From the IMG/VR virus record IMGVR_UViG_3300042691_025398, positions 55,814 to 119,813 of that record: a stretch of DNA of 64,000 nucleotides. The stretch is one strand, 5' to 3'. The position numbers and the translations under genes are program-made. The notes under the pieces were generated by a model. It worked only from the letters and a program-made list of their open reading frames with translations. It searched no databases and was not told where the DNA came from. Below are positions 33,841 to 54,384 of this stretch, piece by piece. Position 1 is the first letter of the stretch, and every line of letters starts with the position of its first letter. The stretch comes from a virus (Duplodnaviria > Heunggongvirae > Uroviricota > Caudoviricetes).

Positions 33841-33883
33841 AGCAGCTCCTTGTTAGCATATCAATATTATACATGATCTGTCT

Positions 33884-34423: not shown

Positions 34424-34530
34424 ATGTCCGCCTTACCCCTGCGAGCAACTCACTGATGTACGTGTGATTATAACGCACTGTTCGTCTAACATTATGTAAT
34501 TGTTTCATGTTGAGAGTTTAAATAACATTA

Positions 34531-35478
34531 ATGTTTTCAATTAATAAACCTTGGGATCGATTACACACCGCGGTTGTGGGTAGTGCATACAGCACGGGCA
34601 GATTTGATTGGATAGAGTACACTGATATTCGACGTGAGTTAGAAATCATTGCACAGGAAACCCAAGAAGATCTTGACCACCTTGCCCACATACTTACATC
34701 ATTTGATGTACAAGTTCTACGCCCAGATATAAACCTGGTGCCTGCGCAGACCTTGCCTCCAGTGGCGCCGCGTGATGATCTGTTGATGTTACAAGATGTC
34801 ATGTATGTGTTAAACAATGATCGTGCAAGCGGTTACGAATCTATAGTTGCACATGTTAGATCTCAAAATAACTTGGTACACACGCATGATCAACCGGACA
34901 ATCACGGAGCCAATGTGTACGACATGGGTGATATGGTTTATTATAGCGTGGATCATATCGAAGACTTGCATAAATCGGAAACATGGTTCACTCGATTTTG
35001 TGACCAAAGGCCCAGACGCCGTTACTATAATGTTGGTCATTTGGACGGTTGGTGGTGTGCACCTACTCCGGGTGTGATAGCTGCCAGCCGTGATCATGAA
35101 CGTTTTGCATTTCAACAACTGTTTTTTCAACATCATTTTCCAGGTTGGCAAGTGCATTATCTTAATGAGACCTTTCAAGGACTAGACCAGCGTGCATGGC
35201 ACAGTGAAACTCATCCACCCGACAGTGAGTTTGCACGTTGGGTTAACAGTCATATACCGCACTGGCTTGGCTGTGCCAGTGAAACAGTTTTTGAAATCAA
35301 CATACTAGTGATTGACCATGAGCTGTGCATAACCGGACAAGATCATCCTGTGTTGCGCGATTCTCTTAAACAAAAAGGGTGCCACCTTGTGGTAGCACCC
35401 TTGCGCCATCAAACCTTTTGGGATCTAGGCATACACTGCGCCACGTCTGACCTGCATCGTGTTAGGAATTCGAACTAG
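34531..35478 (+). CDS. Amidinotransferase-family protein, paralog 2
   Basis: N-terminal WDRLHTAVVGSAY plus C-terminal GIHCATSDLHRVRNS (the Cys-containing active-site end). Collinear with 21195-22229. Confidence 0.6.
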   Translation: MFSINKPWDRLHTAVVGSAYSTGRFDWIEYTDIRRELEIIAQETQEDLDHLAHILTSFDVQVLRPDINLVPAQTLPPVAPRDDLLMLQDVMYVLNNDRASGYESIVAHVRSQNNLVHTHDQPDNHGANVYDMGDMVYYSVDHIEDLHKSETWFTRFCDQRPRRRYYNVGHLDGWWCAPTPGVIAASRDHERFAFQQLFFQHHFPGWQVHYLNETFQGLDQRAWHSETHPPDSEFARWVNSHIPHWLGCASETVFEINILVIDHELCITGQDHPVLRDSLKQKGCHLVVAPLRHQTFWDLGIHCATSDLHRVRNSN

Positions 35479-36553
35479 CAGTCAGAATGTACTTGCCGTA
35501 ACGCTCATGGAACTCATCAAAGTTCTTGAGCTTGCTGGGCTGGAAGGGCAAGTCATATGTGGTCAGTGCAACACGAGCACCCATCACAACAATTTCTGTT
35601 TCGAAGTTATCCATCATGAAACGGAAGAAGTTATCAGCCATGCTGTTAAAAGTCTTTTCGTCCATGCCGTTTTCGTGTGCATCCTTCAGCTCGTAGCACA
35701 TGGAAGTGACCAAGGAATACATGGCACTGACTTCTTTCACCTTTAGTTCTTTCACCTTGCCTGCAAGGATATCTTCTGGCTTGGGCATCTTGGCAGCAAC
35801 CTTGCGATGTGCTGCAAATTTCACTGCAAGACCTTCGCCCACGGTACCTGCAATCAAGTTGGTCGCAGTGTCATCATCAAGGTCTTCATCAGCAAGAATT
35901 TCGCTTACGAAACTCCAGGTACGTGGTGTTGCAAAAGCACGACTTGCACTCTTGCTGTCGAAGTCATACAGGTCCTGCTTGGCAAAACTCAGATAACCAA
36001 TCACGTCTTTGTGAATCTTGTGTTCAACAGCCCACTCTTGCCAGCATGCAAAGTCTTGCTTGAGCTCTTGGTGAATAAAACGATTTGCCAACGGTGTAGG
36101 CATACGATATGTTACACCTTTGTCACTTTCGCGATTGCCTGCTGCAATCATCACCACGTTGTCTGGCAAGTGATATTTGCCAATGCGTCGATTAAGAATC
36201 AATTGATAGGCAGCTGCCTGTACTGCTGGTGCCGCAGAATTCATTTCGTCCATGAATAACACGATTATAGGATACTGGTCGGCCAGTTCTTGATCAGGCA
36301 GCTCAATAGGAGGAGCCCAATCCATCTTGCCAATTTCCTTGTTGTAATATGGAATACCGCGAATGTCAGTAGGCTCCATCTGACCCAGTCGCAGATCGAT
36401 CATGAAACCGCCCATGTCTTCGGTTACCTGAGCTACCACATCACTCTTGCCAATACCAGGAGGACCCCACAAGAACAGCGGACGCTTTACCGCGAATGCC
36501 TTGTTAATGCTCTTACGAGCTTGCTTGATTGTTACTGTGCGTGAATCTGACAT
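35462..36553 (-). CDS. cobS: CobS-like AAA+ ATPase (MoxR/CobS family)
   Basis: Walker A LWGPPGIGKSD. Length and architecture fit phage CobS homologues. Adjacent VWA partner. Confidence 0.7.
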   Translation of the reverse strand: MSDSRTVTIKQARKSINKAFAVKRPLFLWGPPGIGKSDVVAQVTEDMGGFMIDLRLGQMEPTDIRGIPYYNKEIGKMDWAPPIELPDQELADQYPIIVLFMDEMNSAAPAVQAAAYQLILNRRIGKYHLPDNVVMIAAGNRESDKGVTYRMPTPLANRFIHQELKQDFACWQEWAVEHKIHKDVIGYLSFAKQDLYDFDSKSASRAFATPRTWSFVSEILADEDLDDDTATNLIAGTVGEGLAVKFAAHRKVAAKMPKPEDILAGKVKELKVKEVSAMYSLVTSMCYELKDAHENGMDEKTFNSMADNFFRFMMDNFETEIVVMGARVALTTYDLPFQPSKLKNFDEFHERYGKYILTASSNS

Positions 36554-37824: not shown

Positions 37825-38162
37825 TGCTGCATAAACTCTTCTGGATCTTGTCCTTTGCGCGGCGCATCGCCTACACGTTTGACTTTCGCAACAGGAGTTG
37901 CTACTTTTGCAACAGTTGCCTTTTTAGCAGGCTTAGCAGACTGTGCAATTTTAGCAGCACGACGCCATCCAGCAGTGATGCCTTGTGAGGTGAGCCAATC
38001 TATTGCTTCGTCCTTGCCCATTGCAAACGGCAGTTTGATCATGTTTACGTCTTTAGCACCAAGTTTTTCTAGTACCGCAGCACGACCTGCATCATTTGCA
38101 AATTTGTAAACAGTTACATTATCAACAACACATGTGCCCGCAAAAGTGAAAGTTTTGGACAT
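37764..38162 (-). CDS. Lys/Ala-rich histone-H1-like DNA-binding protein (tentative)
   Basis: C-terminal AKIAQSAKPAKKATVAKVATPVAKVKRVGDAPRKG low-complexity basic tail. Confidence 0.35.
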   Translation of the reverse strand: MSKTFTFAGTCVVDNVTVYKFANDAGRAAVLEKLGAKDVNMIKLPFAMGKDEAIDWLTSQGITAGWRRAAKIAQSAKPAKKATVAKVATPVAKVKRVGDAPRKGQDPEEFMQQWWAKQEALVGDRFTSKKAA

Positions 38163-38239
38163 TTACAACTCCTTATCAGTTACTATACCAATATTATATG
38201 AAAATGGGAATAATTGGCCAACCGTTTTTATGTTGCTAA

Positions 38240-38434
38240 TCAAGCAACTTTTTCGTAACGAGCACGGAAGAAGTTATCAGGATCACCGGGCGGGTTGTTA
38301 TAATTGTAACAGAATTGTTCAGCTTCTTGTTCTGTTGTAAAATACTTAACACCCATCGGACGCTGTCCATAACCGCGTTCATACTCAGTCATTGTTACTT
38401 TATACAGAGGACCAGGGCTTTTGACTTCGGGCAT
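38240..38434 (-). CDS. Hypothetical small protein
   Basis: 64 aa. Confidence 0.25.
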   Translation of the reverse strand: MPEVKSPGPLYKVTMTEYERGYGQRPMGVKYFTTEQEAEQFCYNYNNPPGDPDNFFRARYEKVA

Positions 38435-38591
38435 GTTAATCTCCTTTAGGGCGACTTACAATCCAAATAATAATTGCTAAAACAATAAGAAACCAAAACA
38501 TCATGTGTCTCCTGTCAACTGCTACAATTACAGTATAAAGGAACTGGATTTTTTGGTCAAGGAGTGCAAGTGCGCGATGGCACTTGCAATT

Positions 38592-39881
38592 TTAATAACG
38601 GTATGTTTCTGGTTTGAAGGGACCTTGCACAGGTACATTGATGTACTCTGCTTGGGCATCAGTGAGGGTGGTAAGTTCTGCGCCCACATGTGCCAAATGA
38701 AGTCTAGCCACTTCTTCATCCATGTGCTTGGGCAGTAAATAAATCTGTCCAGGTTGATACCGGTCAGAATGTTGCCAAAGTTCAATCTGCGCCAACACCT
38801 GGTTGGTAAAACTGTTTGACATCACATAGCTTGGATGTCCTGTAGCACAGCCAAGGTTTACCAATCGTCCTTTAGCTAACACTATAATCTTAATACCGTC
38901 AGGTCGGGTAACATGATCAACCAAGGGCTTGATTTCTTGCCAATGCCACGATTGAATGCCGGCAATGTCAATCTCGCTGTCAAAGTGACCAATGTTACAC
39001 ACAATAGCATTGTTTTTCATGCGCAGCATATGATCACGATTGATCACATTGATGTTGCCTGTGGCAGTAACAAAGATATCTGCATGTTCGGCCGCATAGT
39101 CCATTGTGACCACACGATAGCCTTCCATGGCCGCTTGTAAAGCACAGATAGGGTCAATTTCAGTGATCCATACCTGTGCTGACAACGCACGTAATGCCTG
39201 AGCTGAACCCTTGCCTACATCACCATAGCCTGCTACCACAGCTATCTTGCCTGCGATCATGACATCAGTTGCACGTTTGATAGCATCAACAAGACTTTCG
39301 CGACAACCATACAGATTGTCAAACTTGGCCTTGGTCACTGAATCATTTACATTGATAGCTGGTAACTTTAGTGTGCCTGCTTGGACTCGTTCCACTAGTT
39401 TGTGAATACCAGTAGTGGTTTCCTCACTAACACCTACTATGCCAGGCAGCAGTTCTGGATGACGATCATGTACCCATGCTGTGAGATCGTGACCGTCGTC
39501 AAGCAGCATGTTGGGCAACCATCCATCAGGGCCTGACAGTGTTTGTTCAATACACCACCAGTATTCTTCTTCGGTTTCACCTTTCCATGCAAACACAGGA
39601 ATTCCACGAGCAGCTAAAGCCGCAGCCGCATGATCCTGTGTGCTGAAAATATTGCAAGAACTCCAGCGCACTTCGGCACCCAACTCAACCAAGGTTTCAA
39701 CTAGCACAGCAGTTTGAATGGTCATGTGCAAGCTGCCAGCAATGCGAGCACCTGCTAATGGTTTGGCATCACGGTATTTGTCTCGAACACTTATCAGTCC
39801 GGGCATTTCGTGTTCAGCAATGGCTATTTCTCTACGACCCCAGTCTGCTAGACCAATGTCTGCTATGCGATAATCTGTCAT
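38592..39881 (-). CDS. ahcY: S-adenosyl-L-homocysteine hydrolase
   Basis: N-terminal [26 protein letters not shown] is the canonical AhcY start. NAD-binding [10 protein letters not shown] block present. Length 429 aa. Confidence 0.9.
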
Positions 39882-40047
39882 TTATGAAAGTCCTTACGTT
39901 CGTTTCTGTTTGCTCTAGGTGGTGCCATTCTAGATTGCATTTCTGCTTGTACCATGCTGCTGATAAAATGGTGACGCTTGTTGGCATCAATAATCGTAGC
40001 GGCCTGCATTTTGCTGGGTTTGGATAGTTTAAAATGTTTGTTGGCTT

Positions 40048-40311
40048 TCATCGGCGTCCTTTGTTCCTTGAATTAGTTTCGGGCGGTTCACGCAGCAACC
40101 AGGATCTATTGACCTTGCCTGCTTGTATTTCATGCATGGTAGTGCTCAATGGTGTATTGCCTTGATTTACCATTGGTGCATGTCCGGATTTGATTTCTCT
40201 AATGCGTTGACTTAAAACTAACACAGCGTCAAACTGGTTACCCAATTTGTGCACTGTGTCCTCACTGCTTAAACTGATTGCATCTCTCTGTGGTAAATTA
40301 GACATTTTCAC
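40048..40311 (-). CDS. Hypothetical protein
   Basis: 87 aa. Confidence 0.3.
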   Translation of the reverse strand: MKMSNLPQRDAISLSSEDTVHKLGNQFDAVLVLSQRIREIKSGHAPMVNQGNTPLSTTMHEIQAGKVNRSWLLREPPETNSRNKGRR

Positions 40312-40394
40312 TCCAATTGTTTAGTTATGATTATAACACGGAAATGTCTTTCTCACAACAGATATGATAAACCCGCCACTAGGGCGGGTCAGGA

Positions 40395-42313
<1,919 letters not shown>

Positions 42314-42423
42314 CGTTGCCTTCTCCTTTAAAAATAAGCAAGAAAGTATGCACAGTCTCACCTGAGCACTGTGCAAAGGTTATTTATAACATTTTAATCA
42401 TGTGCAAAGCAAGTTTTTTGGAT

Positions 42424-42446
42424 AAAAAAAGCCCTTGCGGGCTTTT
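42424..42446 (-). terminator. Rho-independent terminator after the pstS-porin operon
   Basis: gcccgcaagggc hairpin followed by a U-run on the minus strand. Confidence 0.55.
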
Positions 42447-42487
42447 GCGGGTTACGAGTTCCCGCAGCACTCTATGCTTGTGCTCGA

Positions 42488-43897
42488 TTAGAAACTCAAT
42501 TGACCTCTTAGCATCACTGCTCGATCGCCGTTCACACGACCACCTGACGAGCCAACTGCACTGTCAAATTTGGTGTCAACATAGTTCAACAAGAAACGCA
42601 CATTATCGTTCCAGAACCAGGTCACACCATAGGTCATTGCAGTTGCACGATTGGCTTTGCCTGCTGCTACTGTGATATCACTGGCGTCAAACTCGCTGGC
42701 ACGTACACCCACTTGCCAAGCACCTGTGCCACCTGCTGTGACTGCGGTGTTTGGTTTGATCCAGTTGAACACACCATTACGATAGTTGTGATTTTCACCA
42801 GTCAGGTTGTACACTGCTTGCACATAGTTACCTTGGATTTCACGATCAACACCAGTGGTGGGATCATATTTGAAGTTGAACATTTCACCTTGTACCTTGA
42901 GAGCACGATAGGCAAATGCAGCCTCTAGTCCTTGGCGTGTGCGTTCGGTCTCACCACTTAATGCACTGCCAGTGAACCAGCCACTGTGCAATCTTGCTTC
43001 AGTGCGGCCACTTGCTGGAGTTACGCCACCTTTGATGCTGCCTTGACTGTAAGCACCGCCTAGATGCACGACCATGTCTTTGTTCTGAATGATTTCTGCA
43101 ACGTTGGTAGTTAAACGACCAATTAAATCAACACCGTCAACTGTGGCATCCTTGTTGGCACGACCACGGCTGGCTGCAAGTGCATAGGTAAAGCCCACAG
43201 CAGGCACACCATGAATCATCACACCAGTTTCTTTAGCAGGAATAAACTCACCATCAGTGTTGCCCACTAGACTGCGTTCCATGAAGTCTATATTATTAGA
43301 GCTGGTTAATTGCTCAAGACTGAATGGCATCTTGAATGTACCAAACTGCAATTGTGCAGCTGGATTGGCATCATAGTTGACCCAGAACTCATCAATGGTT
43401 GTGGAGGTTGAACCAGCGCCTACATCATTGCCAAAGTTTGCCAGCAGCTGATATTTGAAGTCCTTGGCAATTTGTCCACGAATACCAAAACGTCCACGAC
43501 GCATTTCCATGGTGTTTGCGTAAGAGTCAGTGGTTTGACCTGTAGCGTAGTCTGGGCTGTAGTTTCTATAGTCCATGTGGATACGACCAGTGAACTGAGC
43601 AGTGGTGTTTCCATCCTTGCTCTTGATGCCAAGTCCATTCTCTAGAACTGAACCATCGTTGGCCTTGCTCACACGATAGTTGTTGTTGTCGCGAATGTCT
43701 TTGTCAATTCTTGACTGGTTGAACTGTTTATTTTCTTGCTTGTCACGATAGGTTTCTAGTTTAGAATCATATTCCTTCTGTGACAGAATGCCTTTTTCTC
43801 GCAAGATATTCAGAGTATCAACATACTCATCTGCGTGTGCTGCGCCAAAACAAAAACTCAAAGCGATAGCAACACTTAGTTTTTTAAGATTTTTCAT
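42488..43897 (-). CDS. Outer-membrane porin, likely phosphate-selective (OprO/OprP-like)
   Basis: Signal peptide. Alternating beta-strand composition. C-terminal aromatic residue (…RGQLSF). Co-directional and adjacent to pstS. Confidence 0.5.
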   Translation of the reverse strand: MKNLKKLSVAIALSFCFGAAHADEYVDTLNILREKGILSQKEYDSKLETYRDKQENKQFNQSRIDKDIRDNNNYRVSKANDGSVLENGLGIKSKDGNTTAQFTGRIHMDYRNYSPDYATGQTTDSYANTMEMRRGRFGIRGQIAKDFKYQLLANFGNDVGAGSTSTTIDEFWVNYDANPAAQLQFGTFKMPFSLEQLTSSNNIDFMERSLVGNTDGEFIPAKETGVMIHGVPAVGFTYALAASRGRANKDATVDGVDLIGRLTTNVAEIIQNKDMVVHLGGAYSQGSIKGGVTPASGRTEARLHSGWFTGSALSGETERTRQGLEAAFAYRALKVQGEMFNFKYDPTTGVDREIQGNYVQAVYNLTGENHNYRNGVFNWIKPNTAVTAGGTGAWQVGVRASEFDASDITVAAGKANRATAMTYGVTWFWNDNVRFLLNYVDTKFDSAVGSSGGRVNGDRAVMLRGQLSF

Positions 43898-43906
43898 TGT
43901 TTGTCC

Positions 43907-44932
43907 TTATTTCCAAATAGGCTGACCGTCGGCACCTTTTAACTGAGCCTTCCAGTTGTCCTGTACCAATTTTACTACACTATTTGGCAAATGTACATAC
44001 TCAAGTTCTTCACTCATCTTGCTGCCATTTTTAAATGACCAATCAAAGAATTTAAGAATAGCACGACCTGTTACAGCATCCGCTTGCTGACGGTGCATGA
44101 TGATGAAACTTGCACCTGTGGCTGGCCAAGCATCTTTACCTGTTTGCCAAGTTAGCAATTGATAAAAGCCAGGAGCATTTGCCCAATCAGCACCTGCTGC
44201 TGCGGCTTTAAATGTACTGTCATCTGGTTGTACAAAGTTACCATCACGATTTTTCAATTGTGCATGGGCAATTTTGTTTTTCTTAGCGTAGGCATATTCA
44301 ATGTAACCAAACGCACCTTTGATACGCTGCACCTGTGCAGCAACACCTTCGTTGCCTTTACCGCCTACACCAGTTGGCCATTTAACTGCTGTGCCTTCGC
44401 CAACTGCTTTTTGAAAATCAGCATTGGCCTTGCTCAAATAGTTGGTCCAAATGAATGTAGTACCTGAACCATCTGCACGATGTACCACAGTGATATTCAA
44501 AGCAGGAAGACTCACACCAGGATTTAGATCTGCTATTGCACGATCATTCCATTTTGTAATTTTACCAAGGTGAATGTTGGCAATCACGTCACTGGTTAGT
44601 TTAAGTTGCCCTGCCTCGATTCCTTCAAGATTCACTACAGGCACAACGCCTCCAATGATAGCTGGGAACTGCATCAAGCCTTCTTTGTCTAGTTCTTCAA
44701 TTTTCAATGGCATGTCTGATGCGCCAAAGTCCACGGTCTTGGCCTTGATTTGACGAATACCACCACCTGATCCAATTGATTGATAATTCAGGCCAATGCC
44801 TGTGGCTGCTTTATATGATTCAGCCCATTTTGAATAGATAGGATAGGGGAAAGTTGCACCTGCTCCAGTTAAATCAGCAGCTGATGCTGAAATAGCCAAA
44901 GAAGTTGCCAATAGTGCGAGTAATTTTTTCAT
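43907..44932 (-). CDS. pstS: Periplasmic phosphate-binding protein PstS
   Basis: Signal peptide, then GAGATFPYPIYSKWAESY...GSGGGI PstS signature. Confidence 0.85.
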   Translation of the reverse strand: MKKLLALLATSLAISASAADLTGAGATFPYPIYSKWAESYKAATGIGLNYQSIGSGGGIRQIKAKTVDFGASDMPLKIEELDKEGLMQFPAIIGGVVPVVNLEGIEAGQLKLTSDVIANIHLGKITKWNDRAIADLNPGVSLPALNITVVHRADGSGTTFIWTNYLSKANADFQKAVGEGTAVKWPTGVGGKGNEGVAAQVQRIKGAFGYIEYAYAKKNKIAHAQLKNRDGNFVQPDDSTFKAAAAGADWANAPGFYQLLTWQTGKDAWPATGASFIIMHRQQADAVTGRAILKFFDWSFKNGSKMSEELEYVHLPNSVVKLVQDNWKAQLKGADGQPIWK

Positions 44933-45003
44933 ACTGTAATCTCCAATTTATGTGCAATGCACAATATATTTAAACACAGAAGTATTACAGCAGTGTTACA
45001 AAT

Positions 45004-46002
45004 TTAATGTAATTTCACCAAATTATTGCGGAAAATTTCCCAAGCAGATTCCCAGCTCCATCTGTGACTACCTTGCCATACCTGATGCCTATCCAACATG
45101 AAAGCATCTTTTACTGCTTGTTTTAGGTCAGTGTTCATACAGCCAGTGATGCCCTCATCAATCACATCTTCTGGTCCTTGACAAGGAAACGCTGCCACTG
45201 GTGTTCCACAGGCCATGGCTTCTATCATGACAATGCCAAAGGTTTCCCATTGACTAGGAAACACAAACACATCGGCATTGGCATAATATTTGGCCAAGTC
45301 AATACCAGTTTTGTATCCTGTAAAATGCACTTCGGGATACTGTTTACGATAGGTCTCCAGCATGGGGCCATCACCTACCATGATTTTTTTGTAGCCTCTA
45401 TAATCAAGCTCAAAAAATCTTTCAAGATTTTTTTCCTTGCTCACACGACTTACACACAACAGATAAGGTTCGTGTGAGCTATTTCTATGCCCTGGATGAA
45501 AAATCTCACGATCTACACCGCGTGTCCATGAAATAATTTCGCCATCAAAACCATGTTCCTTCAATTCTTTAACCATGGTGTCTGTGGTAGTTAAAACCTT
45601 ACCCGAGTGTTTGTGAAACCATCGCACTAAAGGCCAAGTAACTGCTTCAGGGATACCAAACAGTTTTCTAAGTCCTTCTGGAAACTTAGTATGATAAGCA
45701 GTGTTGTACCTATAATTGTGTTTGTCAAGATATTGTCTAACACGCAGACCCAAAGGACCTTCGGTGGCGATATGGATATGATCCGGATTGATCTCCTCAA
45801 GTATCTCGCCCACTTTCCTGGGAAAGGCAATCTTGACTTCGTTGTAGCCAGGGCAACTAACATAGCTGAACCGCCCGGGATCAAGATATACAACACGATA
45901 GTTGTCCCGAACCGCAAGCGTCTCAATATTCTTATAGGTCGTAACCACACCATTGATCTGCTCCGGTAAATTGTCTGTGACTATTAAAATTGTTTTTTGC
46001 AT
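45004..46002 (-). CDS. Glycosyltransferase family 1 (GT4-like)
   Basis: C-terminal E-x7-E type region FPSQWETFGIVMIEAMACGTPVAA. Confidence 0.75.
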   Translation of the reverse strand: MQKTILIVTDNLPEQINGVVTTYKNIETLAVRDNYRVVYLDPGRFSYVSCPGYNEVKIAFPRKVGEILEEINPDHIHIATEGPLGLRVRQYLDKHNYRYNTAYHTKFPEGLRKLFGIPEAVTWPLVRWFHKHSGKVLTTTDTMVKELKEHGFDGEIISWTRGVDREIFHPGHRNSSHEPYLLCVSRVSKEKNLERFFELDYRGYKKIMVGDGPMLETYRKQYPEVHFTGYKTGIDLAKYYANADVFVFPSQWETFGIVMIEAMACGTPVAAFPCQGPEDVIDEGITGCMNTDLKQAVKDAFMLDRHQVWQGSHRWSWESAWEIFRNNLVKLH

Positions 46003-46098
46003 TCTGCTACCACCTTAAAGGATTCAAATTTTACCCAATATGCGAGACTGCTTTTTGCACGTTCGCATGCCTGCTGAGTTTCAAACTCCATTTGCACC

Positions 46099-46932
46099 CT
46101 AGCCGGAATGTCTTTTGGATCGTTTAGGTGCACTGCTATCAATATCATCAACCACACTGTCGCTCTCCTGAGTCCAGCTTATGATTTCCCACGTCCCATT
46201 GTGATGTTCAACCAAGGCTGTGCAACTTTCAACCCAGTCACCATCGTTCATATATGTAACACCGTCTATTTCTTTGATTTCAGCATGATGTATGTGTCCG
46301 CATATCACGCCGTCAAAGCCACGCTTCTTACAATATGCGGCTAGATTTCGTTCAAACTGGAATATAAAGTCTATTGCTCTTTTGACTCTATGCTTGAGGA
46401 AAAAAGAAAGGCTCCAATAGCCAAAACCAAGCCTATGGCGCAACCAATTAAATCTGCTGTTAAGGCCAAGAATGAAATCGTATGCTTTATCTCCTAATAT
46501 ACTAAGCCAAGGCGCCAGTCTTGTAATACCATCAAACAAGTCACCGTGGGTAACCAGATAATGTTTGCCATCTGCTCCAATGTGTTCGCATTGGTTGGTC
46601 ATTTCTATCATGCCAAAGTTTAGATTGTAATTTAAAAATGGTCTTAGAAATTCATCATGGTTGCCTAGAACGTAAATCACTCGAGTGTCTCGTTTGGCAT
46701 GTCCTAGTACACGGCGCACCACATTGGTATGACTCTGTTTCCAACGCCATTTGTTCTGCTTGATTTTCCAAGCATCGATGATGTCGCCCACGAGATACAA
46801 TGTTTGGCAGGAGTTGTGTTTGAGAAAATTGTTGAGTTGTTCAGCCTTGCAGTCCTTGGTACCTAGGTGAACGTCGGATATAAAAATTGTGCGATAGGTT
46901 TTCATTTTATTTTTATTTAAACACAGTAACAT
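46099..46932 (-). CDS. Calcineurin-like metallophosphoesterase (LpxH-like)
   Basis: ISDVHLG ... LVGDIIDAW ... GNHD ... GHIH motifs. Confidence 0.6.
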   Translation of the reverse strand: MLLCLNKNKMKTYRTIFISDVHLGTKDCKAEQLNNFLKHNSCQTLYLVGDIIDAWKIKQNKWRWKQSHTNVVRRVLGHAKRDTRVIYVLGNHDEFLRPFLNYNLNFGMIEMTNQCEHIGADGKHYLVTHGDLFDGITRLAPWLSILGDKAYDFILGLNSRFNWLRHRLGFGYWSLSFFLKHRVKRAIDFIFQFERNLAAYCKKRGFDGVICGHIHHAEIKEIDGVTYMNDGDWVESCTALVEHHNGTWEIISWTQESDSVVDDIDSSAPKRSKRHSG

Positions 46933-46965
46933 TACAATCCTATTACAATTTTGAAAATATTTTCA

Positions 46966-47290
46966 TGAAAAAGCCCGCCGAAGCGGGCTTACTATTTTGG
47001 GTGACAAGGCATAGTTGCCTCGGAGGTTAGGCTGCTAGAGCGAAAACCTCGTCGTTAGCTGCGTTTGCAGTTACTATTTTGCTTGGATTACGTCCATCGC
47101 CTTTCGTGTTGCCTTCTCTACTATCTCACCCTGTCGAAACCTTGACTGGCCCATCAAAAGCATACTTGGAAGATTTATTAACCGCTGACTCTTACTCTTC
47201 CCCAGCGTCACTATAGTATGCTTTTGGTGGACCAGGCGGGAGTCGAACCCGCGTCCAGAATGCCTTCGCTTTGAAGGAATTACAACAATA
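46966..47290 (-). ncRNA. ssrA: Circularly permuted (two-piece) tmRNA
   Basis: The tRNA-like 3' end GGACGCGGGTTCGACTCCCGCCTGGTCCACCA (reverse complement of 47225-47260) lies upstream of the coding piece. The coding piece starts GGGCCAGTCAAGGTTTCGACAGGG at about 47153 and carries the tag reading frame ..GCAAACGCAGCTAACGACGAGGTTTTCGCTCTAGCAGCCTAA (ANAANDEVFALAA*). A terminator hairpin lies at 46968-46990. The 5' boundary is approximate. Confidence 0.7.
46968..46990 (-). terminator. Rho-independent terminator of tmRNA
   Basis: aagcccgcttcggcgggctt hairpin plus U-run on the minus strand. Confidence 0.6.
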
Positions 47291-47648
47291 CTTGAATTTT
47301 ACATTTATTTTTGCAGCATGTCAAATTACTCAACCTAGTATTAATCTTCATCTATTTTATGATGGTAAGTTTCATACCATAGTGCAAATAACACACCAAG
47401 CAAGCATCCCGTAAATATGGATCCTAAAAGAACTCCAATGATAAAATACAATTGTTCTGTGCCCATTGTTATTTTTCTACCAATCTTTGTTCACAACGAG
47501 CTTGAATTTTATCTTCTCTGTGATGAATCAATACTGGCAGTATTTCTTCACATTCTTCTCTGCGAGCAAAAGATTTCCAATCACGCCATTCGCCATCTGC
47601 TGCTACTAAAACAACAAGAACCCAGACGTATGATCCCACATAAGTTTC

Positions 47649-48233
47649 CTAAAATGCTGCGTGTATTCTTGCTAGTATTGTGTCCACCACTTGACTACTC
47701 AACACCACTTCATAATGATTAAAAGGCAGCTCAAGTAATTCTATATCTGATCTTTGACGCATGCTTTTGATAGTGACCACGCCATCATTTGGTTCTTTGA
47801 TCCAGGGACTTTCACCCGCTGTGGTTACTATTTGCGTCCAGTTTTTTGGCGAAGCAATTTGTCTAGCGTCTACCATGGGCATGCTCATGGTACCAATATC
47901 TTTCATTAACCTATTAAACGGTAAAAAATATTTAGCAAAATCTGCTTGTTCGCTGCCACCATAAGGTGTGCTTAGACTTACGCCGCCTCGTGTGGTTTCT
48001 TTATAGTAGTCTGCTAGATATAAACTGTAGATGCCACCCAGGCTGTGGCTGATAAAGAACAAACGTTCTGCATCATCAAGACGGCCCTTCATTAGGGCTA
48101 GATTGTTGTCAAAGCCGTTGTCACTGCGGTACTCAAGCATGATGTCAGGTTCCTCAAATTCATCCCTGACAAATTGCCTTATGAAGCTGAAGCTTTCAGC
48201 TGTGGCACTGGCTCCGTGTATGTAAACAATCAT
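47649..48233 (-). CDS. Alpha/beta-hydrolase (lipase/esterase-like)
   Basis: GxSxG nucleophile elbow ISHSLGG. 194 aa. Confidence 0.55.
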   Translation of the reverse strand: MIVYIHGASATAESFSFIRQFVRDEFEEPDIMLEYRSDNGFDNNLALMKGRLDDAERLFFISHSLGGIYSLYLADYYKETTRGGVSLSTPYGGSEQADFAKYFLPFNRLMKDIGTMSMPMVDARQIASPKNWTQIVTTAGESPWIKEPNDGVVTIKSMRQRSDIELLELPFNHYEVVLSSQVVDTILARIHAAF

Positions 48234-48236
48234 GAC

Positions 48237-48464
48237 TCACTTGGCACCTTTATTGTTATTGGAGTTGGTGTTGTTTTTTTCCAGTTCTTCTTTGGCATAG
48301 TAACGCATGCTGGTTTCATCATAGGGGTTGATACGCCAGCCCCAGGATTTCCAATATTTTGAAATCAGGTTATTGATTATAAGAACAGCGCCAACAAGCA
48401 CTATACTGCTGATAGCCAGCAGTATTGAAGAAGCTAAAAAAACAGCAGTTTGATCCATGTTCAT
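48237..48464 (-). CDS. Small membrane protein
   Basis: 75 aa with one hydrophobic helix. Confidence 0.3.
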   Translation of the reverse strand: MNMDQTAVFLASSILLAISSIVLVGAVLIINNLISKYWKSWGWRINPYDETSMRYYAKEELEKNNTNSNNNKGAK

Positions 48465-48622
48465 CTGGTTATGCCTTTTGTGAATAATTTATTTAAGAGA
48501 AAAGTATGATATTATCTGTCGTTACGCAACACAATCCAGGCGATTATTTTACATGTAAAATAACCACCCACTGCTGTGATCAAGAGTGCTATTGGGCCTT
48601 TGAAAATAGATACCAATTCCAT

Positions 48623-49093
48623 TCAATATTTAATCTCGGGCAGGCTGTACAACACAAAGTTGTGCACCACCGGATTGTATCTAATCTTGAACACACAAAC
48701 ACCTGGTTCGTCTAGGTATCCATAAGTGCGTTTTACGCCACCGGACTTCAAACGATACACAGAATAATGATCTAAATCCGCCAAAGGCTCGTTATCCAAT
48801 TCCACACGTTCCACTATCACAGCACTTTCATGATCTGATCTTTCAAGAATTTCTATTCCAATCTGTGAGATTGATCTGGGGTCATGTTCAAAATCAAAAC
48901 GTTCTGTGTCTATGTTGACTTTTTCTCGATAGACATAGTCTCCGAGAATCAACCATTTGACGTTCTCGGGGGTGCCCTTATATTTTACGTAAAACGAAAG
49001 TTTTTGCAAGTTTTTTGGCTTGGACATATTGATCATAAACCTCTTGTTGTTCACGCAACATGCGCTCGGCCTCTTGGCCATCTCTATCACCAA
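48623..49093 (-). CDS. Hypothetical protein (start uncertain because it overlaps the upstream gene)
   Basis: 156 aa ORF. Overlaps the end of the B12-radical-SAM gene by about 115 nt, so an internal start is likely. Confidence 0.3.
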   Translation of the reverse strand: MVIEMAKRPSACCVNNKRFMINMSKPKNLQKLSFYVKYKGTPENVKWLILGDYVYREKVNIDTERFDFEHDPRSISQIGIEILERSDHESAVIVERVELDNEPLADLDHYSVYRLKSGGVKRTYGYLDEPGVCVFKIRYNPVVHNFVLYSLPEIKY

Positions 49094-50525
49094 AGCCCAA
49101 TTCGTGCTGTAGCTCTAGAAATCTTTTATATCTATTGAATCGAGTTTGATAGTTGTTGTCTGGATTGGTTGGAGTGTTCCAAAAGATATGACTCCATCCC
49201 TTGACCACATGCTCTCGCTCAAATTGATAATGATCACGCAGTCGATCGTCATTGGTCAGTGGCACTTGATCGCCTAGAGTGAACGGACTGGATATGCTCA
49301 CACTCAACAGTCCATCATGTGCCCAATGCCGATATCGGCGCAGTAGATCCAGTGTTTGTTCAAAATCTTGTTCAGTCTCCATGGGATAGCCGGCCATGAA
49401 CAACCAAATTTGCTTTATACCATTGTCATGTAACTGATGTGCAGTATAATCAATGTCAGCGTTGCTGAATTTTTTACGCATGTCATAGCGCACACGCTCG
49501 CTTCCGCTCTCAACTCCAATTATCCATTCCTGACATCCAGCTTCAGCCGCAAGAGCAAAATCTCTAGGCGGTTGATTTTCTCGTCCGCGAAAGATAGCGT
49601 AGCCACTGTAACGCAAGGTTCTTGGCAAATGATCAGCCAGATATTGATTCATTTTACGATAGTTTGGTATACTACCGTTTATCAAGTTACCGCTGAATCT
49701 AAAAAAGTCAATGCCTGTGCGTTCATGGCTTGCAATCATCTCTTTGGCCAGCAGTTCTCCGTCTTTGAATATGTACTTGGGCCATAGATGTTCCACATCG
49801 CAAAATGTACAGCGACGTACACAACCTTTGCTGTCAGTGATCAAGAGATACCTGTCACCAGGATTGAATCTTTGGTAAAGATCAAAATCATAATTGTGCC
49901 AGTCTGGAATAGGCACTGCATTGAGATCCGCGGAAGTCTGCGGAGGTGAATCAACCAGTCCATACATGTCCTGTTTAATCACATCAATGATAAAGCTTTC
50001 AGCATCGCCTGTAACCGCACAGTCAATCATGCCGCGTTCTACCAACCAACGAGCTCTTGAACCTGTGGCGTGTGTATCACCGGTGTACTCACCTTGAGTC
50101 AAGATTTCTAGACCACGGCCACCTGCTAGAATCTTCACACCAGGCAACCAACGTCTAATGCTATAACACATGAGTGTGAGATAGGTTTCACTCATGACAC
50201 TGAACACACTTAGACCAATCACTTCTGGATCAAACCGATCTCGGATGGCCAGCAGTTGTTTACGGTTCCATTTTAAAATGTCTATGAGTACTCTTCTTGG
50301 CAGCTTGCGTTCATTGCTGGGACCTTGACTGATATAAAACAGCAGTTCAGGCCAGTATGGTTTATCAATAAATTCCGCAGTGAATTCTGCCGCAAGGTCT
50401 ACTGGCACAGCAGCAATGCCTGCTTGATTAAGACAGGAACTGAGCAGTGCAGGAGCAGTGGCTGGCCAACCCGGAGTCTGATATGGCAAGCTGACTATTA
50501 CAATGTGTCGCTTGTCACTGGTCAT
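48978..50525 (-). CDS. Cobalamin-binding-domain radical SAM enzyme (class B-like)
   Basis: N-terminal Rossmann-like B12-binding region (HIVIVSLPYQ...) and radical SAM CX3CX2C (GCVRRCTFCDV). 515 aa. Confidence 0.6.
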   Translation of the reverse strand: MTSDKRHIVIVSLPYQTPGWPATAPALLSSCLNQAGIAAVPVDLAAEFTAEFIDKPYWPELLFYISQGPSNERKLPRRVLIDILKWNRKQLLAIRDRFDPEVIGLSVFSVMSETYLTLMCYSIRRWLPGVKILAGGRGLEILTQGEYTGDTHATGSRARWLVERGMIDCAVTGDAESFIIDVIKQDMYGLVDSPPQTSADLNAVPIPDWHNYDFDLYQRFNPGDRYLLITDSKGCVRRCTFCDVEHLWPKYIFKDGELLAKEMIASHERTGIDFFRFSGNLINGSIPNYRKMNQYLADHLPRTLRYSGYAIFRGRENQPPRDFALAAEAGCQEWIIGVESGSERVRYDMRKKFSNADIDYTAHQLHDNGIKQIWLFMAGYPMETEQDFEQTLDLLRRYRHWAHDGLLSVSISSPFTLGDQVPLTNDDRLRDHYQFEREHVVKGWSHIFWNTPTNPDNNYQTRFNRYKRFLELQHELGFGDRDGQEAERMLREQQEVYDQYVQAKKLAKTFVLRKI

Positions 50526-51468
50526 GGTTTAAATGGTAAACTAATGTGTAAAAATCAAAAACATTGCCTTCGGTTGTGGCAGCGAAAGGAGACTGTAAAC
50601 GAGTCAAGTGATGTTTGCGTAGTGAGTAATCAAAGTCCTGCATCACAGCATCAAACCAAGCCTGATTCGGGCAGCCCACTCTGATTAGTGTGTCTGTAGC
50701 ATGATAGGCTTTCCAAGACACCTGTGTGTTTTCCTGCCACCAATAAACCAGAGGATCCAAACTATGCACAATGTTTTGCGGGCACCAGTTTTGTATGATT
50801 ACAGCAGTTGGACGATGGTGCGTGACTGCTCTCATGATACCATAATGATCAGTAACAATGTTCATGATTGCTGGCAGTATCACAGTGTCAATGTCCGTAC
50901 ATAATTGTTGAGTGTGTGATAGGTCATTGATATCACTTTTTATAGTTTGAAAACGCTTTTTATCCGGATCAATTAGAGAACACATTTCCTGCGCTATACC
51001 CAATCCAGATTCTTTAACATCTGTCAAGGTCACCCACGATGCTCCGTGGTGCAAGCACAGCGCACCAAACAATCCTATGTGTGTGGCAAAATCAATCACT
51101 GACTTGTTCTGTATTGCATCAAGATTATCTAGAATTGCTAATTGTAATCTCGTACGGTCAAAATCGTCCAGCTGCCAAGTACTATCACTTTCAAATTGAT
51201 CAAACGGAATATCTAGATCCAACCAATGATCCGCGCTGAAGTTATGCATGGTCATGCATTCTTGTTTGATAAAATCTGGCAGCAGATCAAAGTCTTTGGG
51301 TTGGTTGCAATCGGGCCAAGATTGGTCACGTATGTTTGCATAACTGCGCTGCCAACTTAGAATATTACGTTGGTCATACACAGGATCTTTGCCCACATTA
51401 TTGCGTTCTAACAAATAGGCTTTGCGAGCTGCGTATTCGTAGATTTTCAAATCAAACATATTTTGCAT
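50515..51468 (-). CDS. Class I SAM-dependent methyltransferase-like protein
   Basis: Motif I-like VIDFATHIGLFGA followed by an acidic residue (LTDV). Translationally coupled to the B12-radical-SAM gene. Confidence 0.45.
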   Translation of the reverse strand: MQNMFDLKIYEYAARKAYLLERNNVGKDPVYDQRNILSWQRSYANIRDQSWPDCNQPKDFDLLPDFIKQECMTMHNFSADHWLDLDIPFDQFESDSTWQLDDFDRTRLQLAILDNLDAIQNKSVIDFATHIGLFGALCLHHGASWVTLTDVKESGLGIAQEMCSLIDPDKKRFQTIKSDINDLSHTQQLCTDIDTVILPAIMNIVTDHYGIMRAVTHHRPTAVIIQNWCPQNIVHSLDPLVYWWQENTQVSWKAYHATDTLIRVGCPNQAWFDAVMQDFDYSLRKHHLTRLQSPFAATTEGNVFDFYTLVYHLNHDQ

Positions 51469-51508
51469 GTGGACTATTTACTGTACCACATGCGCAGATA
51501 GAAATTTG

Positions 51509-51832
51509 CTATCGGCCAGCAGAATGTGGTTTAAGATCTTGTCCCACCTGCACTAGACAGAACTGCTCGTCGTTCCACTTTTCAATTAAACTGTAGGATC
51601 CGGTATTTTTATTAGCAAACAAAATTGACTGCACCATGACTTCTTGATTGTCTATCCTACGCAAAGCAGTCATCTGCAACATGGGTTGCTCATGATAACT
51701 GGATAACATGGCATTTATAGAGTCCCAATTTGAACAATTGGTCAAAGTTGTCACAGTGAAAATTTCTTGTGCCTGCACAGATAGAGCCGCAAACAGTACC
51801 GCCGCGCCTAGGATTTTCATGATGGGTTCCAA
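51509..51832 (-). CDS. Small secreted protein
   Basis: Signal peptide MKILGAAVLFAALSVQA. Confidence 0.35.
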   Translation of the reverse strand: MEPIMKILGAAVLFAALSVQAQEIFTVTTLTNCSNWDSINAMLSSYHEQPMLQMTALRRIDNQEVMVQSILFANKNTGSYSLIEKWNDEQFCLVQVGQDLKPHSAGR

Positions 51833-51889
51833 AATTATATTTATAGGTACCCAAGAAAAAAGGCTGTGTCACTAAGGACACAGCCCGGT

Positions 51890-52453
51890 TCAACTTACAC
51901 CATGATTTCCATTTTGAAAACCCACTGACCCACCTTCTGCTTCTATACGTTTGATCACATCTTCAAACAGGATAGGGGCAAAGTCTGTTTGTTCTACGCA
52001 GACGCAATGATATCTAACGTCAACTGCACCATCTTTCATAACTCTGTTAGCATGAAGATGACCGTGTATGTTGGTACCAAAGCGACCCAGACTTTCTTCG
52101 TGTATGGGAATATGACTTAGTATCATTCCGTTCATAACATGGTATGCACGTAGTTCACGGAAGTGCTCTCTATATTCTGTGTCACGAAAGATATCGTGGT
52201 TACCACGTATCAGCACCTTGTCGCCGTTTAAACGAGAAAGTGTGGACAGAGCTCTGCGGTTGATAACAACATCACCTAGGTGATAGACTTTGTCGTTAGG
52301 CCGAACACGTTCGTTCCAAGCCTTGACCATAAACTCGTCCATCTCCTCGGGGTCGTCCCAAGGTCGCAGTTTTGTCACACCATCGTTGCGCATGAAGCGG
52401 CAAACGCCAGCGTGACCAAAATGCGTGTCACTGACTAAAAACACTGCTGGCAT
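51890..52453 (-). CDS. Calcineurin-like metallophosphoesterase
   Basis: FLVSDTHFGH ... HLGDV ... GNHD motifs. Confidence 0.65.
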   Translation of the reverse strand: MPAVFLVSDTHFGHAGVCRFMRNDGVTKLRPWDDPEEMDEFMVKAWNERVRPNDKVYHLGDVVINRRALSTLSRLNGDKVLIRGNHDIFRDTEYREHFRELRAYHVMNGMILSHIPIHEESLGRFGTNIHGHLHANRVMKDGAVDVRYHCVCVEQTDFAPILFEDVIKRIEAEGGSVGFQNGNHGVS

Positions 52454-52908: not shown

Positions 52909-53322
52909 TCAGTTGTCAAGCGTCAGAGCTTGCAGCATGCGGTTCTTGACCAAGAGATTGGGCGCTCTATATCCTTCAGTATCTTGAAAGCCCATGATCA
53001 CGCCAACTTCGCAAACAGCTCCACTGCGACAAACTCCAGCATGACAGTGCACAATCACGTTCATGCTTTGATCCAAGGCATGCTTCAAAAGTTTTACCAA
53101 CTGATTGGCCTGAAGCTCGCTGCATCGCCACTCCTCGTTGATGCTGTAATCATTGGCTTCGATGTCAAGAAAACAAAACTGATGTGTTTCACGAAACTGA
53201 TACTTGGGCGTTGGGAATTCCACTCCAGGATCCACGATTTGAATCAACATGCTGTTTATGCCAGCATCGTAGTGCCAACCTTGTTGAATTTCCTTTAATG
53301 ATATGTTTTGAATCCAGGGCAT
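52909..53322 (-). CDS. Dual-specificity/tyrosine protein phosphatase (CX5R)
   Basis: VIVHCHAGVCRSGA P-loop. Confidence 0.75.
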   Translation of the reverse strand: MPWIQNISLKEIQQGWHYDAGINSMLIQIVDPGVEFPTPKYQFRETHQFCFLDIEANDYSINEEWRCSELQANQLVKLLKHALDQSMNVIVHCHAGVCRSGAVCEVGVIMGFQDTEGYRAPNLLVKNRMLQALTLDN

Positions 53323-53734: not shown

Positions 53735-54109
53735 TTAACGTAAACATCTAGCTCGTGCTTCGATCATGTGATCAACATTGCCTTTAACCACTACATTGGT
53801 ATAGGTATCAACAGTGCCACTAGCATGATCATACACTCGGTTATCCACTGCATGATAGGTACGCACACGTTCGTCACTGGCACGATAGCGTTCGGTGTCT
53901 TTGTGAAAGTGCCGCTCTACTCTAGCGCGACACACTGCTAGCGCATTTTTTCGATTGTCTTCTCTGCTGCGACTAGCAGTGCCATTGGCCTGTATGCCTG
54001 TGGGTTCATGGATACAACGGCAACAATTCTGATGTTTGTTTCGATGTTGACCACCACCACCGGTGCTGGAGAACCATTCAAATCTAAATTGGTCTTCTGT
54101 GATTTTCAT
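53735..54109 (-). CDS. arfB: ArfB-like peptidyl-tRNA hydrolase (GGQ motif, RF-1 domain protein)
   Basis: FSSTGGGGQHRNKHQNCCRCIHEPTGIQANG...SRSREDNRKNA parallels the release-factor/ArfB GGQ catalytic loop (GPGGQHVNKT..AVRLTH.PTGI...ERSQ..N). Basic C-terminal tail. Start trimmed to the internal Met MKITEDQF. The ORF track extends to 54211. Confidence 0.65.
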   Translation of the reverse strand: MKITEDQFRFEWFSSTGGGGQHRNKHQNCCRCIHEPTGIQANGTASRSREDNRKNALAVCRARVERHFHKDTERYRASDERVRTYHAVDNRVYDHASGTVDTYTNVVVKGNVDHMIEARARCLR

Positions 54110-54384
54110 TATAGATTCCTCATGCTCAACAGCAGTGCAGTTAAGTATTTTTCTTCTCGAAATGCAATAAAATGTCTGTGATCTTTCTTGGGCATGGTGT
54201 ACCATCCCCATACAGGATTTTGTATTCTATCCTGATTCCAGATAGACCAACCTTCGCCATGCTCCCAATATAATTTGTGACGCAGCTCTACAGATTTTAT
54301 CACTTCCCAACGCCAGGTTAATGCATAGATTAATCCTGCACGACCCAATTGATATCTTTTGTCTAGCTTGATAATCTTCATCAC
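54109..54384 (-). CDS. Hypothetical protein
   Basis: 91 aa. Its stop overlaps the arfB-like start. Confidence 0.3.
   Translation of the reverse strand: MMKIIKLDKRYQLGRAGLIYALTWRWEVIKSVELRHKLYWEHGEGWSIWNQDRIQNPVWGWYTMPKKDHRHFIAFREEKYLTALLLSMRNL

Follow-up and report, generated by a model that had tools for sequence, protein, structure and literature searches.

The interval 38592-51468 of a 64,000-nucleotide stretch of viral DNA (positions 55,814-119,813 of the IMG/VR record IMGVR_UViG_3300042691_025398; the whole stretch is called the window here) encodes an S-adenosyl-L-homocysteine (SAH) hydrolase, AhcY, at one end. At the other end lie a radical S-adenosylmethionine (SAM) enzyme of 515 amino acids (aa), referred to as rSAM515, and a methyltransferase-like open reading frame (ORF) of 317 aa, orf317. 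This combination raises the question of whether the phage maintains a single SAM-cycle module, as an earlier note made from the letters of the DNA had supposed, or whether the interval holds units that are independent of one another. The evidence favours the latter. The interval reads as a stretch of an accessory-gene region with several independent cassettes rather than one SAM module, and the probability attached to this reading is about 0.8.

The window encodes tail-fibre-like and baseplate-like proteins, ThyX, a 5'-3' exonuclease, an RNaseH-like gene and an NT5C nucleotidase. Homologues of its proteins are found repeatedly on IMG/VR contigs as long as 355 kb, alongside homologues of gp32, UvsX and TerL, and an identical copy of orf317 is present on a metagenome contig of 192,332 bp. 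The window is therefore treated as part of a large, uncultured T4-like freshwater phage. A Megablast search with positions 38000-52000 against 50,697 phage records gave no match. The window represents 64 kb of a 192-kb contig, and the statements of absence made below refer to the window.

Gene order around AhcY and the radical SAM operon

Gene order was compared across 80 AhcY loci and 79 rSAM515-family loci (±10 kb each), and across 80 MetK loci (±3 kb). AhcY has a recurring neighbourhood that comprises an RNaseH-like gene, an RpoZ-like gene, AhcY itself, a dual-specificity phosphatase (DSP) gene, a PdeM-like phosphoesterase gene, AAA and VWA genes with one further gene between them, and ThyX. 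About 8-12 of the 80 loci have a relative of rSAM515 no more than 10 kb from AhcY, just one has such a relative within 3 kb, and three have a radical SAM gene of any kind within 3 kb. A close syntenic copy of rSAM515 (85-87% identity) near AhcY is confined to the six nearest relatives (loci L001-L005 and L011). Four of these six have orf317, and five of them (L002-L005 and L011, the sixth being L001) share the GroEL/PstS-type insert.

In the window, AhcY and the radical SAM operon are ~9 kb apart, with chaperonin, phosphate-uptake, glycosyltransferase and phosphoesterase genes between them. Their putative transcription signals are also separate, in that a promoter-like site (40358-40330) precedes the rpoZ-like ORF and a hairpin (38565-38588) follows AhcY, and a strong hairpin stands before the radical SAM operon. 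Because of this block of unrelated genes, the separate signals and the rarity with which AhcY and rSAM515 occur close together, the interval does not appear to be a module. The single SAM-cycle module envisaged earlier is not supported.

All genes in and around the interval are on the minus strand, and GC content is even (0.39-0.46). Listed from the upstream end, the features are:

51861-51886, minus strand: hairpin resembling a terminator, with a T-run, at the upstream limit of the radical SAM operon (10-bp stem with 6 GC pairs, then TTTTTCTT)
51509-51820, minus strand: small ORF with a signal-peptide-like N-terminus (MKILGAAVLFAALSVQAQ), read from the sequence as the first gene of the operon
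50515-51468, minus strand: orf317, 317 aa, predicted class I methyltransferase fold
48978-50525, minus strand: rSAM515, 515 aa, with an N-terminal B12-like Rossmann domain, a radical SAM core and a C-terminal helical region
48623-49036, minus strand: 137-aa partner ORF of rSAM515, its start overlapping the rSAM515 3' end
48237-48464, minus strand: 75-aa ORF
47649-48233, minus strand: 194-aa ORF with a weak, sub-cutoff alpha/beta-hydrolase match (PF12697, E=0.004), 82% conserved in the closest relatives
46099-46932, minus strand: calcineurin-like metallophosphoesterase (PF00149, 47.1 bits)
45004-46002, minus strand: glycosyltransferase of family 4 (GT4; PF00534, 86.8 bits; PF13439)
43907-44932, minus strand: PstS, phosphate-binding protein (NF008171, 437.7 bits; cutoff 339)
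42488-43897, minus strand: phosphate-selective porin O/P (PF07396, 159 bits)
42029-42376, minus strand: GroES (Cpn10, PF00166, 114 bits)
40395-42017, minus strand: GroEL (NF009488, 881 bits; phrog_5725, 606 bits)
40048-40311, minus strand: 87-aa RpoZ/Rpb6-like ORF (RNA polymerase omega; PF01192, 33.9 bits; cutoff 26)
38592-39881, minus strand: AhcY, S-adenosyl-L-homocysteine hydrolase, 429 aa (TIGR00936, PF05221, PF00670)

Several points weigh against the reading as independent cassettes. The folds are all predicted, and the roles are read from sequence and models. The locus counts are not phylogenetically independent. The promoters and terminators were called by match to a consensus only, and promoter-like sites are no more common (34) than shuffled sequence would give (29.7). 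MetK or DNA methyltransferases may be encoded in the rest of the 192-kb contig, of which 64 kb was covered. Finally, the closest relatives (loci L002-L005 and L088-L092) keep AhcY and the radical SAM operon within ~9 kb and in the same order, and a loose functional association between the two is possible in this sublineage.

The radical SAM enzyme rSAM515 and the cobalamin question

The assignment of the ORF at 48978-50525 to the radical SAM enzymes, already made in the earlier note, is borne out by a PF04055 score of 62.7 bits (cutoff 29.5) and by a CX3CX2C motif, CVRRCTFC (C235, C239 and C242), that is invariant in 41 homologues. The cobalamin (B12)-binding domain proposed for the same protein is recovered in the predicted structure but not as a Pfam family. 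PF02310 gives no match to the whole protein at E<=0.01; on the N-terminal domain alone it scores 18.2 bits (E=0.0023), below the cutoff of 32.1, and seven homologues score 17.6-27.3 bits. Although sub-threshold, PF02310 is the top match in all 8 family members tested. The AlphaFold model (41 homologues; predicted local distance difference test score, pLDDT, 89.9) has a Rossmann domain of the B12 type joined to the radical SAM core, and aligns along nearly its full length with cobalamin-dependent radical SAM enzymes. Structure comparison places the N-terminal domain closer to true cobalamin-binding domains than to CheY-like domains, and the best sequence-profile match of the protein is the methylase MgmA (E=4.6e-12). 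A class-B architecture is predicted for rSAM515 from the model, and cobalamin use is undecided.

Identity to TsrM, MgmA, TokK, CysS, OxsB and AprD4 is only 13-18%, and rSAM515 scores well under the cutoffs of all NCBIfam equivalogs, the best of which is the PhpK family (67.8 against 600 bits). Unlike the named class B enzymes, it has a dedicated partner of ~135 aa, and its PF02310 match is sub-threshold. A reading as a methylthiotransferase of the MiaB/RimO type was rejected because rSAM515 lacks the conserved N-terminal cysteines, of which three are required. The family extends over at least 428 IMG/VR stretches and at least 236 proteins at E<=0.001, the latter from a set of 8,000 candidates. 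It is not represented in PHROGs, and among cultured phages only a distant match was found, in Streptomyces phage SF3.

The solved structural relatives of rSAM515 include both the protein methylase MgmA and the aminoglycoside-sugar enzyme AprD4, and the second of these opens a realistic alternative, if not the favoured one. Like AprD4, rSAM515 may be cobalamin-free, use its B12-like domain as a scaffold and carry out a non-methylating sugar dehydration or rearrangement that yields no SAH. The sub-threshold PF02310 scores across the family would fit such an enzyme, as would the GT4, DegT, epimerase, PIG-L and carbamoyltransferase genes found in the window and beside homologues. However, the cobalamin enzymes TsrM, MgmA, CysS, TokK and OxsB score nearly equal to AprD4, and both the best profile match, a methylase, and the affinity of the N-terminal domain to true cobalamin-binding domains argue for a cobalamin enzyme. 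The neighbouring methyltransferase-fold gene also hints at methyl chemistry.

As a class-B-type enzyme, which is the reading preferred here, rSAM515 would work with its partner to tailor a protein or a glycan, with radical C-methylation or a similar radical step as the likeliest reaction. The two belong to a separate four-gene operon made up of the small secreted ORF, the methyltransferase-fold protein, the class-B-type radical SAM enzyme and the 137-aa partner, in which orf317 would contribute a lineage-specific, optional extra step. If the phage enzyme does require B12, phage fitness would be tied to cobalamin availability in B12-poor waters.

A two-gene cassette of rSAM515 and its partner

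Judging from gene order, it is the ~135-aa partner, and not the methyltransferase-like ORF, that regularly accompanies rSAM515. Members of the partner family (~130-145 aa) lie directly downstream of the rSAM515 homologue, mostly with an overlap at its 3' end, in 62 of 79 viral loci. The copy in the window (48623-49036) overlaps the 3' end of rSAM515 by 59 nucleotides and has AAGAGG ahead of its ATG; other copies are found at 8892-9278 of L094 and 11481-11915 of L116. The family carries a loosely conserved C-terminal motif, TYG[YF]...G...F. The partner has no relative in Pfam, PHROG or the PDB: a 20-sequence profile searched against the PDB returned only a chance match to uL24 (E=0.6), and Pfam searches with 20 members of the family gave nothing consistent. 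The partner could be a substrate of rSAM515 or a subunit.

The sites occupied by rSAM515 and its partner vary. They include the junction between TerL and gp32-UvsX, the space between AAA and VWA genes (L096, L101 and L125), positions beside arrays of N-terminal-twitch radical SAM genes (30 of 79 loci), and the vicinity of sugar-nucleotide genes. By the evidence of these sites, rSAM515 and its partner are a mobile two-gene cassette, which is the conserved core of the operon. The cassette is known so far mainly from viral contigs.

In L096 and L125 (~10001-11900 in both) and in L101 (5651-7508), the cassette sits exactly between the AAA ATPase gene and the VWA/DUF2201 gene. This placement suggests either an insertion hot spot or a link between the two systems.

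The coupling of rSAM515 to the methyltransferase-like ORF, on which the module had partly been built, is present in the window. The stop of orf317 overlaps the start of rSAM515 by 11 nucleotides (ATGACCAGTGA), an identical overlap exists in L084, and the two genes appear to be translationally coupled. However, only 6 of 79 loci have orf317 next to the radical SAM gene, and L086, whose radical SAM enzyme is 85% identical, lacks it; orf317 is therefore accessory. About 12 full-length homologues were found among 5.8 billion proteins.

The assignment of orf317 to the class I methyltransferases stands at the level of the predicted fold, but not at the level of sequence families or of motif I. It matches no Pfam family and no PHROG, and its only NCBIfam match is RSP_2647 (17.1 bits against a cutoff of 600). 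Profile matches in the PDB are weak (MJ0882, E=0.004; ToxA, E=0.013). Its model (pLDDT 87.9) includes a helical N-terminal domain, and the top 50 Foldseek matches in the PDB are all class I SAM methyltransferases with probability 1.0, among them ChlM, PNMT, GNMT and EvdMO1. Motif I (VIDFATHIGLFG) is non-canonical, reading V-I-D-F-A-T-H-x-G-L-x-G instead of GxGxG, with D126, T129, H130, G132 and G135 invariant. The end of strand 2 is D150, which is N in most homologues, and five cysteines are invariant among the homologues. Since motif I deviates, as does the strand-2 residue in most homologues, SAM binding by orf317 is plausible only.

Residues 34-80 of orf317 (window ~51230-51370, minus strand) form a ~45-residue module with the pattern WxxSYxxIRDxSWPDC, followed after 8-9 residues by LPxxIxxEC...H. 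The module recurs with 55-60% identity in unrelated radical SAM proteins (P0129, P0153, P0154 and P0156; L020 ~1051, minus strand), where it is either internal or N-terminal. Its recurrence suggests a shared docking or metal-binding module. The small signal-peptide ORF at the head of the operon has 32% identical copies at the same position in L002-L005.

A broader proposal can be built on these elements, although as a whole it is doubtful. In it, rSAM515 and its ~135-aa, beta-rich partner would constitute an undescribed two-component radical SAM system, possibly cobalamin-dependent, that C-methylates a protein or glycan of the virion or the host surface or modifies it by another radical reaction. 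The module with the SWPDC sequence would mark enzymes docking to a shared substrate or scaffold, and MetK and AhcY would supply SAM and clean up after its use.

AhcY as an adenosylhomocysteinase

The identification of the gene at 38592-39881 as AhcY holds firmly. The protein is a full-length match to the equivalog family TIGR00936 (608.5 bits; cutoff 497.6), scores 439.5 bits against PF05221 and 257.7 bits against PF00670, and is ~70% identical to a solved SAH hydrolase (SAHH; PDB 8wwg). It is of the short type, without the ~40-aa insertion. The catalytic lysine and aspartates, which the earlier note had singled out for inspection, are intact. In an alignment to rat SAHH (1b3r), the catalytic residues H52, D129, E154, K184, D188, N189, H299 and H349 correspond in that order to H54, D130, E155, K185, D189, N190, H300 and H352 of the rat enzyme. 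In SAHH, a C-terminal lysine and tyrosine reach the NAD of the neighbouring subunit, and the counterparts of rat K425 and Y429 are present as K423 and Y427 (...FKPETYRY). The NAD-binding Rossmann motif is GYGDVGKG at 218-225. All ten functional residues are invariant across 81 viral copies. By residues and family, AhcY is a bona fide adenosylhomocysteinase and looks fully functional. An alternative reading as an S-inosylhomocysteine hydrolase was discarded, the match to 7r3a (E 1e-90) being much weaker than that to true SAHH (E 4e-212).

The statement that a phage-encoded AhcY is uncommon is fair for cultured phages, since it occurs in 3 of 50,697 deposited phage records, and PHROGs contain no AhcY family. 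In contrast, a scan of IMG/VR found at least 143 contigs with copies 77-85% identical, and the overall range of conservation on such contigs is 72-100% identity. A neighbour-joining tree of 81 viral copies with the 79 best bacterial ones groups all viral sequences in one clade. Identity among viral copies is at least 72.6%, and that between viral and bacterial copies is at most 77.2%; the best bacterial matches (up to 77% identity) are scattered over Gammaproteobacteria and others. With a single viral clade, invariant functional residues and a spread over many IMG/VR contigs, AhcY is best read as an old, selectively maintained backbone gene of this phage lineage, which is neither a recent capture nor an assembly artefact.

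The RpoZ-like ORF lies directly upstream of AhcY in 26 of 80 viral loci, and by its position behind the promoter-like site it is probably co-transcribed with AhcY. Why a phage-encoded omega-like subunit should be paired with AhcY is not obvious. In 13 of 80 loci AhcY has a QueF-like gene as a direct neighbour, and AhpC- and AhpD-like genes recur near it.

AhcY and the SAM cycle

Reductive cleavage of SAM by radical SAM enzymes yields 5'-deoxyadenosine and methionine, not SAH, and 5'-deoxyadenosine is cleared by enzymes of the MTA/SAH nucleosidase type (MTA, 5'-methylthioadenosine), not by AhcY. SAH comes only from class I methyltransferases and from the second SAM that class B radical SAM methylases use. 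For the six radical SAM enzymes of the N-terminal-twitch type encoded elsewhere in the window, SAH removal therefore brings no benefit, and the earlier suggestion that AhcY feeds them falls with this chemistry. Gene order agrees, as genes of this type lie within 3 kb of MetK in 15 of 80 loci and within 3 kb of AhcY in 2 of 80. This amounts to a correction: an SAH hydrolase supports methyltransferases, not radical SAM turnover.

The more general idea of a heavy flux through SAM is sustained for the lineage but not for the window. The gene directly upstream of AhcY is MetK in 10 of 80 AhcY loci, and AhcY follows MetK in 11 of 68 MetK loci. Examples are L026 (6565-8951, with a gap of 14 nucleotides), L025 (603-2998), L030 (3747-6556) and L079 (8486-11281), with a QueF-like gene between the two in L030 and L079. 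A class I methyltransferase (Methyltransf_11/12/23) is found at ~3 kb from AhcY in 19-23 of 80 loci. In the 64-kb window, however, MetK is absent (best tblastn E=0.38), and no canonical GxGxG, DPPY or Dcm motif, no methyltransferase of the sister phages and no QueF was found. Investment of the phage lineage in SAM chemistry is supported by these gene neighbourhoods, by its intact and long-conserved AhcY and by the large number of its radical SAM genes.

We infer a role of AhcY in methylation from the family of the enzyme and from the genes for MetK and methyltransferases that lie near it in sister phages. During infection, AhcY would hydrolyse SAH released by phage and host methyltransferases to adenosine and homocysteine. 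Removal of SAH would relieve product inhibition of the methyltransferases, and both products would return to host salvage. AhcY would serve the radical SAM operon only as far as that operon methylates, and would be useless for ordinary radical SAM turnover: rSAM515 would be one source of SAH for AhcY as a class B methylase, and none as an AprD4-like enzyme. AhcY is rare in cultured phages yet stably present in the backbone of large freshwater phages that form an abundant group, and these viruses therefore seem to manage the host methyl cycle actively, sometimes with a SAM synthetase of their own.

It is unlikely that AhcY acts mainly in salvage, drawing on the host SAH pool to provide adenosine for phage nucleotides and homocysteine for regeneration of methionine. 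The location of the gene would suit this role, for AhcY stands in a backbone rich in nucleotide metabolism (ThyX at 29575-30228, NT5C at 57711-58211, the 5'-3' exonuclease and the RNaseH-like gene), QueF-like genes flank it in 13 sister loci, and the window has no canonical methyltransferase. A redirection toward nucleotide synthesis has also been argued for phages of Lake Baikal (PMC7678222). However, the operon with MetK in sister phages and the class I methyltransferases close by speak for the methyl cycle. The SAH pool is, moreover, small relative to nucleotide demand. Salvage and methylation are not mutually exclusive.

The AAA/VWA pair, the radical SAM array and the integrated module

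The earlier note counted a CobS/CobT-like pair among the components of the supposed module and took six radical SAM enzymes to profit from it. The genes meant by the pair lie outside the interval, at 32581-36553:

35462-36553, minus strand: AAA+ ATPase, MoxR-like (PF00004, PF07726 and PF07728, weak; phrog_1297 'ATPase', 335 bits)
32581-33840, minus strand: DUF2201 metallopeptidase-like and VWA-like protein (PF13203, 127 bits; PF09967, 70.7 bits; phrog_1314, 374 bits)

Neither protein has an NCBIfam match at E<=0.001, and hence neither matches a CobS or CobT model; no AAA or VWA protein is found among the ORFs of 38592-51468. The match of the ATPase to the CobS-type phrog_249 amounts to 22 bits over a 35-residue Walker-A stretch. 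The pair resembles the CobS-CobT and MoxR-VWA pairs of cyanophages and pelagiphages in that an AAA+ ATPase is followed by a VWA-domain protein in the phage backbone. It differs from them in that the ATPase belongs to phrog_1297 rather than the CobS-type phrog_249, and in that the VWA protein is DUF2201 metallopeptidase-like.

The six other radical SAM genes are present as described. They belong to a tandem array at 9769-19489 (plus strand), just downstream of tail-fibre-like genes, that comprises eight same-strand ORFs, at least six of which are homologous. Six of the ORFs (9769-18438) encode N-terminal-twitch radical SAM enzymes, each with a CX3CX2C motif; the ORFs at 12214-13332 and 18428-19489 do not have this motif. 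Three of the six enzymes have a SPASM match N-terminal to the core, and two score above the NF033640 cutoff, with up to 406 bits.

An integrated module in which AhcY, the B12-type radical SAM enzyme, the methyltransferase-like ORF and CobS/CobT sustain SAM flux and relieve SAH inhibition for methylation and for seven radical SAM enzymes is quite improbable. In its favour, one strand carries all of its genes in a span of about 20 kb, the 5-6 closest relatives share the arrangement, and the lineage has MetK and methyltransferases as well. Three loci (L096, L101 and L125) even hold the radical SAM cassette between AAA and VWA genes. Yet radical SAM enzymes release no SAH, the parts are kept apart by ~9 kb of unrelated genes and by separate hairpins, and no more than 3 of 80 loci have a radical SAM gene of any kind within 3 kb of AhcY. 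The AAA/VWA pair matches neither CobS nor CobT and is outside the interval, and the window has no MetK. The parts that concern CobS/CobT and the six ordinary radical SAM enzymes are largely refuted.

That the host-like genes (AhcY, GroEL, PstS and porin) stem from a chimeric assembly or a bacterial island can practically be dismissed, because, for all their very high bacterial-family scores (GroEL 881, PstS 438 and AhcY 608 bits), the gene order is repeated in independent IMG/VR contigs from different samples with phage genes on both sides, GC content is uniform, viral AhcY is one clade apart from 79 bacterial sequences, and tail-fibre-like and baseplate-like genes are in the same window.

Relation to published phage gene sets

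AhcY and SAM-cycle gene sets have been described in phages before. Phages of methylotrophs from Lake Baikal (VP_139) are reported to encode MetK, an SAH hydrolase, three methyltransferases, radical SAM proteins and a cytidylyltransferase, a set that was read as a boost of the SAM cycle (Coutinho et al., 2020, Microbiome 8:163; PMC7678222). The likeness to the present lineage is in the gene set, as sister loci have MetK-AhcY operons and a cytidylyltransferase-cupin gene. In contrast, the window has neither MetK nor a canonical methyltransferase. Furthermore, the text on the Baikal phages treats the reaction of the hydrolase as that of MTA/SAH nucleosidase (PMC7678222), but the window encodes the NAD-dependent AhcY type.

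A survey of viral genes of methionine and homocysteine metabolism lists ahcY along with metK, dcm, mtnN and luxS, without an analysis of this phage lineage at the level of residues, clades or synteny (Kieft et al., 2021; bioRxiv 10.1101/2021.01.05.425418). The evidence given here at these three levels extends the published virome observations on AhcY.

In pelagimyophages, which are T4-like aquatic phages, radical SAM cassettes come and go in a variable host-recognition cluster near tail-fibre genes (Zaragoza-Solas et al., 2020; PMC7029224). The array at 9769-19489, downstream of tail-fibre-like genes, is similar in this respect. That study describes no class-B-type enzyme, partner or AhcY, and freshwater SAR11 phages were reported to have no radical SAM genes (PMC7029224). 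These genes do not appear in 'A novel lineage of large aquatic bacteriophages' (PMC12619734), and a literature search for a phage-encoded S-adenosylhomocysteine hydrolase by that phrase returned no paper. The undescribed elements are the cassette of radical SAM enzyme and partner and the shared ~45-residue mini-domain. Both go beyond what the earlier note had claimed and deserve follow-up; the cassette is widespread.

Other genes of the interval and the window

The GroES/GroEL pair is unrelated to SAM. It is a complete pair, very close to bacterial chaperonins, with 90% identity in the nearest phage relatives. PstS is well known among the auxiliary genes of phages; in the window its neighbour encodes a phosphate porin of the outer membrane, of the O/P type, and the pair is kept in L002-L005, L011, L016 and L058. 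By their family matches, the two are phosphate-uptake auxiliary genes.

Beyond the upstream end of the interval, the minus strand also encodes a PdeM-like metallophosphoesterase (51890-52453), a DSP-like ORF (52909-53322) and an RF-1-domain (ArfB-like) protein (53735-54211). The PdeM-like and DSP-like genes are upstream of AhcY here and usually downstream of it in relatives, which indicates a local rearrangement.

Genes for a NodU/TobZ-type carbamoyltransferase, an NAD-dependent epimerase/dehydratase, DegT, a PIG-L deacetylase and the GT4 enzyme are distributed over 19661-21202 (plus strand), 26067-28697 (minus strand) and 45004-46002 (minus strand). These sugar genes resemble an amino-sugar tailoring pathway and could supply the radical SAM substrate.

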